This document shows positions 50,710 to 53,337 of a stretch of 64,000 bases of DNA, piece after piece; positions within the stretch are counted from its first letter, which is position 1, and each line of letters begins with the position of its first letter. The notes beneath the pieces are model-generated. The model was not told where the DNA came from, did no database searches, and saw only the letters and a list, made by a program, of their open reading frames with translations. Source of the DNA: Escherichia coli (GTDB lineage: Bacteria; Pseudomonadota; Gammaproteobacteria; Enterobacterales; Enterobacteriaceae); assembly GCF_013122565.1 (NCBI RefSeq), contig NZ_CP053258.1. One strand, given 5' to 3'. The position numbers and the translations under genes were made by a program.

Positions 50710-53244
50710 TTAATTACTACCAAACATATCCTTAATCCAACCGGCTACACCGTCGCTATCTTTCTGCTCTTGCTGGGCAGGTTGCTGTTGCGGCTGTTGC
50801 TGCGGCTGTGAAGACTGATCAAACGGATTGCCTGACGGCTGCTGCTGCATCTCACTCTGCTGGCACAGCGATTGCGGATCGCTGGTCCAGACCGGCAAGA
50901 CACGCATGCCACCGCTGCAAACAAAGTTGCCGTCGTAGTCCACGCCCATATCTGCAATATCTTCTGGCGGAACAAGATTCAGCGGTGTTGGCGTCTGGTT
51001 AGCCAGATAACGCTGATAAATCGACATTGCCCCGCTGGCACCATACAGTTTGGTCGGCTGGTTGTTATCACGGCCTACCCAGGTGATGGTCACCGTGCTG
51101 CCGTCAATGCCCGCAAACCAGGTATCTACGTTATTGTTGGTAGTCCCTGTTTTCCCTGCCAGATGCAGGTTCGGGTATTTCGCCCCAAGCTGACGACCCG
51201 TACCGCGTTGTACCACCTGCTGCATGGTCCATAGTGTCAGATACGCCGCCTGCGCCGGAACAGCGCGTTCCGCCTGCGGGAAGCTCTGATACAGCACTTT
51301 GCCATCTTCCGCAATTACCGAACGCAGCGCAGAAAGCGGTGCACGGTTACCGCCGCTGGCGATAGTCTGGAATGCCTGCGCCACTTCGATTGGCGTTAAG
51401 TTCAACGCCCCCAGCAGCATCGCCGGAACCGGATGCAGCTGATCTTTCGGTACGCCCAGTTTAATCCAGGTCTCCGTAACCGCAGGCAGCCCCAGCGCCA
51501 TCCCCAGATTTACCGTCGGCACGTTCATCGAACGGGTCAACGCATCCACCAGCATCACTCTGCCGCTTTCGCTATAACGACGGTCATCGTTCTGCGGTGA
51601 CCAGACCTGGCCATTCGGCTGACGTAGCGCGATTGGCGCATCCGCAATCCACGTATTCAGACGATAGATTTTCGGCTGGCTTAAGGCCGTCAGATAAGTC
51701 GCTGGTTTTGCAAGAGAACCAATCGAACGACGCGCCTGCATCGCACGGTTGTAGCCCGCAAACTGCGGCTCAGAACCACCGACCATCGCACGAACTTCAC
51801 CACTAAAGCGGTCGACGACCACAATCGCAGTTTCAAGATCGCTCAGCTTACGCTGTTTCTTCAGTGCCGGAATGCCTTCCACGGCGGCTTTTTCTGCCGC
51901 GTCCTGTGCCACCGAGTCAAAGGTAGTGAAGATCTTCACGCCGGAGAGATCTTTTACCTTATCGCCCAGTTTTGCCTGCAACTCCTGACGCACCAGCTGC
52001 ATAAAGGCTGGCTGAGGAGAGATCACCCCACCGCGCGGCTGAACACCCAGCGGACGTGCACTCAACATGTCATAGAGTTCTTGATCAATAATCTGTTGCT
52101 GTTGCAGCAGACGCAGCACCAGATTACGTCGCTCCAGCGCCAGTTTTGGGTTACGCCACGGGTTGTAGATGGACGCCCCTTTCACCATGCCGACTAACAG
52201 CGCCTGCTGGTCGAGGCTTAGCTCTTCTACCGGGCGACCAAAGTAATACAAGCTCGCCAGCGGGAAGCCGCGGATTTCGTTGTCGCCGCTCTGACCGAGA
52301 TACACCTCGTTCATATACAGCTCAAGAATACGGTCTTTGCTGTAACGCGCGTCCATGATCAGCGCCATGTAAGCTTCGTTCGCTTTACGCCAGTAAGAGC
52401 GCTCGCTGGAGAGGAACAGGTTTTTCACCAGCTGTTGCGTCAGCGTACTCGCCCCCTGCACCGTGCGACCTGCGGTCAGGTTTGCCAGCACCGCACGTCC
52501 GATGGAGTAGAGACTGATTCCATCATGCTCGTAAAAATGACGGTCTTCTGTCGCCAGCAAAGTATCCACCAGCAAATCAGGGAAACCACTGCGCGGCACA
52601 AACAGACGCTGCTCACCGTTTGGCGAGGAGATCATGGTGATCAGGCGCGGATCAAGACGGAAGAAGCCGAACTGACGGTTGTTCTCCATATTGACGATGG
52701 TCGCCAGATGATCGCCATCAAAGGTCAGACGCGCACGCACCTGCCCTTCTTTACTGTCCGGGAAATCAAACGGACGGCGGATCATCTCAATGCTGTTGGC
52801 CTGCACGGTAAATTCGCCAGGACGGGTCATTTTCGACACCTGACGATACTGGGTAGCCTCCAGCAGCTTCACCATCTCGTTCTTGCTGATGGTCATATCT
52901 GGCTCAAGGTTGACCATTCGGCCATAAACTGCCGCAGGCAGTTGCCAGACCTTGCCATCAATACGGCTACGAATTTTTTGATCGAGATAAACACCGTAAA
53001 TGGCGATCAGCACGGCAAAAACGATAGCCAGTTTTAGCAGTAGCCATAGCCAGCCGCGTTTGCCACGAGGCTTACGCCCTTTGCCTTTGCCCTTACCTTT
53101 GCGCGGCATCGGTTCTTCATCCTCATAGTCATCATAATCGTCGTAATCATCGTCATCTTCGTAACGACGACGGCTTACCTTTTGTTTGACCGGACGCGTC
53201 GGTTTCCCTTTGCGTCCAATTGGCTCGCGGTCATTCCCGGCCAT
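50710..53244 (-). CDS. mrcB: Penicillin-binding protein 1B (bifunctional transglycosylase/transpeptidase)
   Basis: 844 aa from [21 protein letters not shown], acidic and KGKG-rich cytoplasmic tail, GT and TP domains. Confidence 0.9.
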
Positions 53245-53337
53245 GCTTTTTCTCCGCAATATTCAGGCGCAAAAGCCCGATTTTCTGTTCTTCTGTTGCA
53301 AGACAGAAGAAGATATCTCTCAAATTTGCTTTGGTCT

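Follow-up and report, generated by a model that had tools for sequence, protein, structure and literature searches.

The window, by which we mean the whole 64-kb stretch of Escherichia coli DNA that was analysed, carries on its minus strand an open reading frame (ORF) that runs from the ATG at position 53244 to position 50710. The mechanically generated list of ORFs lets this one begin at a TTG five codons before that ATG. We prefer the ATG because a GGAG lies 7 nt 5' of it and because all matching E. coli records annotate it as the start. The gene is mrcB (ponB), which encodes PBP1b: residues 1-843 of the ORF score 1734.8 bits against the NCBIfam equivalog NF007061 (cutoff 1120), the ORF reaches 1247.6 bits against TIGR02071 (cutoff 717.75), and its Pfam domains follow each other in the order PBP1_TM (residues 1-79), UB2H (113-197), Transgly (209-379) and Transpeptidase (473-714). 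The equivalog score and the annotation together bear out the location that the first-pass annotation had given for a repeat segment, namely the 5' end of mrcB. On the same strand, an 824-aa ORF lies upstream and a 747-aa ORF downstream; the matching E. coli records place hrpB upstream and fhuA downstream of mrcB, and this hrpB-mrcB-fhuA context was found here too. A scan of the hrpB-mrcB spacer for promoters and terminators returned none. Among 5426 complete E. coli genomes, all but two (5424) contain an annotated mrcB that the window DNA matches.

PBP1b is made in E. coli as two isoforms, gamma starting 46 codons downstream of alpha (PMC13423804, Nat Microbiol 2026). The same study, which terms the tail an N-terminal intrinsically disordered domain, found that enrichment and activity at the division site belong to alpha only and depend on its extended disordered N-terminus. 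Recruitment of alpha probably proceeds via binding of FtsA by a conserved peptide at the very N-terminus (the first ~14 residues), in which R6 is critical; conservation of this N-peptide extends through Enterobacteriaceae (PMC13423804). The peptide of residues 1-60 printed in that paper is identical to the tail sequence encoded in the window. The gene, its charged tail and the site at which gamma begins internally are decades-old knowledge, and the isoforms too are already known; in our literature search the repeat motifs were found discussed nowhere and appeared only as a methods sequence.

The elements of the tail are collected in Table 1. Across 26 aligned sequences, M1 and D5 of the N-terminal peptide are invariant, and conservation at G3 and R6-K12 is 90% or higher. 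Further downstream, window positions 53077-53160 encode PBP1b residues 29-56 on the minus strand, with the acidic tract and the (KG)4 tract lying on either side of Met46. The earlier reading of this DNA had left out Met46, the gamma start that the tract flanks. The (KG)4 tract is part of a basic juxtamembrane cluster of 17 residues. A 22-residue hydrophobic sequence then follows as the transmembrane segment and falls inside the Pfam PBP1_TM match; its boundaries are approximate and are presumed here from the general topology of PBP1b.

Table 1. Position of mrcB and of the elements of its 5' region in the window.
Feature	Position	Strand	Basis or remark
mrcB (ponB) CDS, PBP1b alpha isoform, 844 aa + stop	50710..53244	-	ORF and translation, NCBIfam, Pfam, annotation
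Codons 1-14, conserved N-terminal peptide of the alpha isoform	53203..53244	-	Conservation in alignment
Acidic D/E/Y tract, codons 29-44, alpha isoform only	53113..53160	-	Overlaps the TRF period-9 and period-18 arrays
Perfect tandem GATGAT (D32-D33)	53146..53151	-	One GAT missing in 183 + 11 E. coli genomes
GATTACGAC, one 9-bp DDY unit between GATTA direct repeats	53140..53148	-	Placement within the repeat ambiguous
GAGG, Shine-Dalgarno-like, from acidic-tract codons GAG GAT	53121..53124	-	11 nt upstream of the Met46 ATG
Met46 ATG, internal start of the PBP1b gamma isoform	53107..53109	-	Position from sequence; start per PMC13423804
(KG)4 tract, codons 49-56, both isoforms	53077..53100	-	Corresponds to the TRF period-6 array
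Perfect tandem GGCAAAGGCAAAGG	53078..53091	-	One GGCAAA missing in 132 + 11 E. coli genomes
Hydrophobic transmembrane segment, approx. residues 64-87, closing the cytoplasmic tail	52984..53055	-	Sequence inside the Pfam PBP1_TM match

The layout of a dual-start gene is present, with an in-frame ATG at codon 46 and the Shine-Dalgarno-like GAGG upstream of it at an interval of 11 nt. This GAGG is invariant in two alignments of the mrcB tract. Through it, the acidic tract may plausibly double as the ribosome-binding region of gamma; codons rich in GAN also yield Shine-Dalgarno-like motifs through composition alone. All PBP1b chains in the PDB start at residues 53-58, and none starts before residue 53. 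Compositional bias, absence from solved structures and variation in length were all found for the tail, and together they would mark it as an indel-tolerant, disordered, low-complexity linker.

The first-pass annotation had described the DNA of this region as short imperfect tandem repeats and had listed the peptides that they encode. Both descriptions hold. On the plus strand, 53078-53102 reads CCTTTGCCTTTGCCCTTACCTTTGC and encodes 11 residues (48-58) on the minus strand, while 53130-53157 reads CATCATAATCGTCGTAATCATCGTCATC and encodes 16 residues (29-44), likewise on the minus strand; the translations agree with those given before. Tandem Repeats Finder (TRF) reported three arrays: period 6 with 4.2 copies at 53078-53102 (score 36), period 9 with 4.0 copies at 53129-53164 (score 44) and period 18 with 2.7 copies at 53117-53164 (score 54). 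Matches within the arrays amount to 76-78%. Only the period-18 array passes the usual threshold of 50, and its score is the highest in the whole 64-kb window, so that the tandem-repeat search proposed earlier did return a significant array. In 300 rounds of dinucleotide-preserving shuffling, the 93-nt segment never attained the observed TRF score or the observed in-frame lag-match statistic, and the repetition is thus beyond chance at the level of DNA.

A different picture emerges when the peptide is kept and synonymous codons are redrawn from the codon usage of mrcB itself. Such resampling gave a TRF score of 52.4 ± 8.7 against 52 observed, and a longest perfect in-frame tandem of 17.4 ± 5.6 nt against 14 nt observed, the latter corresponding to 2.3 copies of a 6-nt unit. 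Since synonymous resampling reproduces the TRF score, the DNA repeat is the footprint of a low-complexity peptide. The repeats are weak, they follow from the peptide and are not a feature of the DNA in its own right, and they carry no sign that the repeat itself is maintained.

To compare the length of the tail within the species, we used the 5424 complete E. coli genomes with an annotated mrcB. A 150-nt query was placed over the tract, matches in the band of at least 99% identity were taken to share its length and to differ from it by no more than one SNP, and allele-specific queries followed; the resulting classes leave out 8 of the 5424 genomes. The length allele of the window, used here as the reference, was found in 5089 genomes (94%). 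One GAT is lost, turning DDDD into DDD, in 179 genomes, and the same loss occurs on a distinct haplotype in 4 more, making 183 for both haplotypes. One GGCAAA is lost in 132 genomes, which reduces four KG units to three, and 11 genomes lack both the GAT and the GGCAAA. A single genome, that of strain CFS3292, has lost GATTACGAC, i.e. one DDY unit. Altogether, at least 327 of the 5424 genomes (6.0%) carry a shorter in-frame allele, and there are at least four shorter length alleles when the two -3 haplotypes are taken as one. The earlier suggestion that in-frame length variants exist between strains was therefore correct, and the comparison of N-terminal length that it had proposed did reveal polymorphism.

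All of the indels are multiples of three (-3, -6, -3 with -6, and -9 nt), and the frame stays open in the variants, whose ORFs measure 843, 842 and 841 aa. Each indel falls on a tandem duplication: the GATGAT, the GGCAAAGGCAAAGG tandem, or the pair GATTACGAC/GATTATGAT with its 9-bp period. Both features, the multiples of three and the position on short tandem duplications, are what slippage predicts. Synthetic alleles expanded by one GK or one D had no match in the complete E. coli genomes, the best full-coverage match to an expansion-allele query being the reference allele at 96.2%. The 132 apparent matches at 99% or above to such a query were rejected, as they were partial local alignments to the -6 genomes.

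Length differences in low-complexity DNA can also arise in sequencing or assembly, given that such DNA can be mis-assembled, and some of the alleles are indeed rare (one genome for the -9 allele, 4 for the GAT loss on the distinct haplotype). We consider this source negligible here. The -3 and -6 alleles were recovered from 179 and 132 complete genomes that come from many laboratories, hosts and countries, the changes are always multiples of three and are tied to specific flanking SNPs, and the repeats are far too short to trouble assemblers.

Tandem repeats at the 5' end of a gene, accompanied by length variants, also call to mind simple-sequence contingency loci, in which mrcB would be switched or modulated at high frequency through the number of repeats. 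This is a very remote prospect. The units of 3, 6 and 9 nt lie inside the ORF and every change keeps the frame; the repeats are imperfect, with the longest perfect tandem covering only 14 nt (~2.3 copies), and repetition does not exceed the synonymous-codon expectation. One allele accounts for 5089 of the 5424 genomes, the variants follow haplotypes instead of varying within them, and neither a +D nor a +GK expansion was found. Long repeats, frame shifts or changes in promoter spacing, and high variability are all lacking, and a phase-variable contingency locus is effectively refuted. The length variants are lineage-linked, not hypervariable.

The direction of the changes can be read from related species. 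The majority peptide is also encoded by E. albertii, E. whittamii and Escherichia sp. E1V33, and since these carry the majority allele, the short alleles of E. coli are the derived state, produced by contraction. Three KG units are found in Citrobacter, Salmonella and Enterobacter, which implies an expansion to four KG units on the Escherichia stem.

The number of origins is harder to read from trees. Haplotypes flanking the tract are mosaic, and the tree of nt 190-1250 and that of the complete 4.6 kb place the -3 strains differently. Because of this mosaicism gene trees are unreliable for the mrcB tract, and origins were instead judged from the haplotypes at the nearest sites and from a predicted intermediate allele. 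The -6 alleles carry 235A on a B2-type haplotype common to CFT073 and E2348/69; the double-deletion alleles carry 99C, 126A, 208T, 276T and 279T. Identity-band arithmetic predicted an intermediate with the haplotype of the double deletion, in which GAT is lost and four KG units are still present, and a direct query recovered it in 4 genomes. As this four-KG intermediate belongs to the double-deletion haplotype, apart from the B2-type haplotype, the loss of GGCAAA is most simply explained by at least two events. A similar argument applies to the 9-bp loss. CFS3292 carries this loss on a tract that matches the reference at every other position; E69, a divergent lineage, has it together with the GK loss and two SNPs. 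These different backgrounds point to recurrence. Both the GGCAAA and the 9-bp losses hence look recurrent, while some of the apparent recurrences could be short recombination tracts instead. The -3 allele may have arisen just once. The alleles of the two divergent lineages, E69 and SCPM-O-B-8794, are absent among the RefSeq complete-genome set.

We further compared indels along the gene and across species. In 19 full-length Escherichia mrcB sequences, indels occur only in the N-terminal tract (nt 94-96 and 154-159) and in the Q-rich C-terminal tail (nt 2437-2453), the latter being shortened by 12 nt in E1V33 and by 9 nt in SCPM-O-B-8794. Indels in mrcB are thus confined to its two low-complexity tails. 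For the wider comparison, the degenerate pattern MAG[ND]DREPIGRKG retrieved 120 species genomes, of which 115 had a tail with the YGxYLD anchor and were analysed. The anchor lies anywhere from position 76 to 91, the acidic tract has 10-26 residues (median 16), and the (K/R)G units number 0-4 (mode 3). Behind the acidic tract, 96 of the 115 species have an internal Met, and in 93 of these 96 a Shine-Dalgarno-like 4-mer lies upstream of it. The order of the parts is conserved, running from the N-peptide through a basic block, the acidic tract, P-M-P-R and the basic KG block to the transmembrane helix. Across enterobacterial species the architecture is conserved and the lengths of the tracts drift.

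Taken together, we hypothesize, with a probability of about 0.85, that the length alleles arise by slippage at short tandem duplications within a charged, disordered linker in which losing one to three residues is tolerated. The tract would encode the disordered, highly charged middle of the cytoplasmic tail of PBP1b, in which an alpha-only acidic D/E/Y spacer is followed by the Met46 start of gamma and then by the basic (KG)4 juxtamembrane cluster. The imperfect DNA repeats would be a passive outcome of a few codon types encoding a low-complexity peptide. Where adjacent units happen to be identical (GATGAT, GGCAAAGGCAAA, GATTAC GAC/GATTAT GAT), replication slippage would occasionally delete one of them; slippage as the mutational mechanism is suggested by the position of the indels and the size of the units. 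Such losses would be tolerated, since every unit spans whole codons and the segment serves as a flexible linker; they would persist as lineage-linked alleles of low frequency, and they could add up to the differences in length seen between species. We infer that the length variants are nearly neutral. The acidic tract itself probably serves, in alpha only, as a flexible spacer that separates the FtsA-binding peptide from the membrane. As for the KG block, it would contribute to a juxtamembrane cluster that obeys the positive-inside rule before the transmembrane helix, with ample charge left after the loss of one GK.

The length alleles might instead be functional and under selection, tuning in some lineages the recruitment of alpha-PBP1b to the divisome or the ratio of alpha to gamma. 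The location of the tract lends itself to this, as it separates the membrane anchor from the N-peptide that septal recruitment requires, and it flanks the start of gamma; the GGCAAA loss, 18 nt downstream of the Met46 ATG, could affect gamma initiation, and the -6 allele is concentrated on the B2-type haplotype of CFT073 and E2348/69. We nevertheless find such tuning unlikely. The -3 and -9 deletions are upstream of the GAGG and leave the spacing between the Shine-Dalgarno-like motif and the ATG unchanged, the changes amount to 1-3 residues against a range of 15 in tail length among species with the same architecture, and one allele is common to 94% of E. coli genomes. In addition, the word 'acidic' is absent from the main text of the paper on the function of the tail (PMC13423804). 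For the -6 allele, confinement to one haplotype group and linkage to a Leu-to-Met change in the transmembrane helix leave hitch-hiking and selection inseparable. That tail-length alleles, notably the B2-type GK loss and the D and DDY losses, are non-neutral by altering the reach or electrostatics of the alpha FtsA-binding peptide or the alpha:gamma translation ratio is in our estimate quite improbable; if true, it would bear on lineage-specific fortification of septal peptidoglycan and on osmotic or beta-lactam tolerance.

With slippage in a tolerant linker as the preferred reading, the tract displays ordinary behaviour for low-complexity sequence in a textbook gene, and by itself it matters little. 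The contribution of this analysis is descriptive, and consists of the census of alleles, the confinement of indels to the two tails and the wide range of acidic and KG lengths in Enterobacterales. The alleles account for the differing annotated lengths of mrcB, 841-844 aa, among strains. The 2026 paper gave a role to the first residues of the tail (PMC13423804), and the natural alleles are ready spacer-length variants for studying the reach of alpha-PBP1b to FtsA.

Compared with known systems, the closest is PBP1b of E. coli K-12 itself. The first 85 residues, including the 14-residue N-peptide, the acidic tract, Met46 and (KG)4, are identical in the window, K-12, H10407 and O157. Relative to K-12, the window differs here by synonymous and flanking SNPs only, and is without a ~100-bp insertion in the hrpB-mrcB spacer. 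Pfam PF14812 (PBP1_TM) treats the region as a domain, and residues 1-79 cover the whole 85-position model at 88.4 bits (cutoff 27.8); in our data, however, the middle part is variable in length and biased in composition, not a conserved fold. Class A PBPs of Firmicutes that bind GpsB likewise use a disordered cytoplasmic N-terminal extension for localisation to the division site (PMC13423804), but their sequence and partner are unrelated to those of PBP1b, and acidic or KG repeats are not reported there. With the contingency loci of Haemophilus and Neisseria, the mrcB tract shares short tandem units in 5' coding sequence whose copy number changes, presumably by slippage. In contrast to those loci, its units are multiples of three, imperfect and of very low copy number, its changes cause no frameshift, and a single allele dominates.

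In Escherichia whittamii and Escherichia sp. E1V33 (comparison loci L079 and L101), the KGKGKGKG peptide of the PBP1b cytoplasmic tail is unchanged but is encoded by different codons (AAA GGA AAG GGC AAA GGA AAA GGG), and because of this codon choice the perfect GGCAAAGGCAAA duplication, the site of the deletion in E. coli, is absent from both. Comparison with the tract of these two species offers a natural control for how far the indel depends on identity at the DNA level. All examined alleles with the 6-nt deletion (loss of one GK pair; L003, L009 and L136-L138) also carry C235A, a substitution at nucleotide 235 of mrcB (codon 79) that replaces Leu with Met within the transmembrane helix of PBP1b. 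The double-deletion alleles, in which the GK pair and one Asp are both lost, are without C235A.

Upstream of mrcB, the window shares the length of its hrpB-mrcB spacer with CFT073, E2348/69, and the strains carrying either the 3-nt or the 6-nt deletion. The spacer is approximately 195 nt long in K-12, H10407, O157, and the double-deletion strains, owing to a G+C-rich insertion of ~100 bp. This insertion, probably one of the small repetitive extragenic elements, contains a palindromic sequence of the CCCTCTCCC...GGGAGAGGG type; the version found in the double-deletion strains is closer to that of the divergent Escherichia lineage SCPM-O-B-8794 than to that of K-12. Shortly downstream of the hrpB stop codon, the spacer of the window holds a perfect inverted repeat that is not followed by a T-run, and a scan of the spacer found no terminator and no sigma-70 promoter consensus. 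In the wood-wren isolate E. coli A10 (NZ_CP028764.1), the hrpB gene adjoining mrcB on its upstream side (L134, 35-2463) is annotated as a frameshifted pseudogene.

Features in and around mrcB, with positions in the window
Feature	Position	Strand	Extent	Loci compared
Q/P-rich tail, second low-complexity segment, mrcB 3' end	~50790-50830	minus	codons ~805-830	
hrpB-mrcB spacer	53245-53337		93 nt	L141 2267-2461, L142, L144, L139, L140
Perfect inverted repeat TTCTTCTGT / ACAGAAGAA	53288-53311		9 bp, 6-nt loop	

The Q/P-rich tail was not flagged by TRF in the window scan, and its length is constant in all 16 E. coli sequences compared (the window and 15 fetched strains). It is 12 nt shorter, by one QQQP unit, in Escherichia sp. 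E1V33 and 9 nt shorter in SCPM-O-B-8794. All solved PBP1b structures end by residue 804, with this tail lying beyond that point.

A record titled Chryseobacterium sp. 18061 (L111, CACSKA010000010.1) has an mrcB 5' end of the Enterobacteriaceae type, very similar to those of Pluralibacter sp. UBA7423 and Enterobacter sp. CC120223-11 (L047, L103), and probably comes from a contaminated or mislabelled assembly. Within the ecoli_genomes collection, the mrcB 5' region had no match in 2 of 5426 complete E. coli genomes and matched three plasmid-labelled records; possible explanations are deletions, assembly problems or replicons assigned wrongly.

The internal Met at which the gamma isoform starts is missing in 19 of the 115 species (L022, L032, L028, L049, L057, L075, L089, L098, and others), a count that took Met codons, and not GTG or TTG, as starts. 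Examples of sequences without this Met are P-V-P-R/K in Leclercia, Shimwellia, Silvania, and a Klebsiella MAG, A-P-A-P-R in Pseudescherichia vulneris, and K-P-R-S-R in Kluyvera. Judged from these tails, the two-isoform arrangement of PBP1b may not be universal in Enterobacteriaceae.
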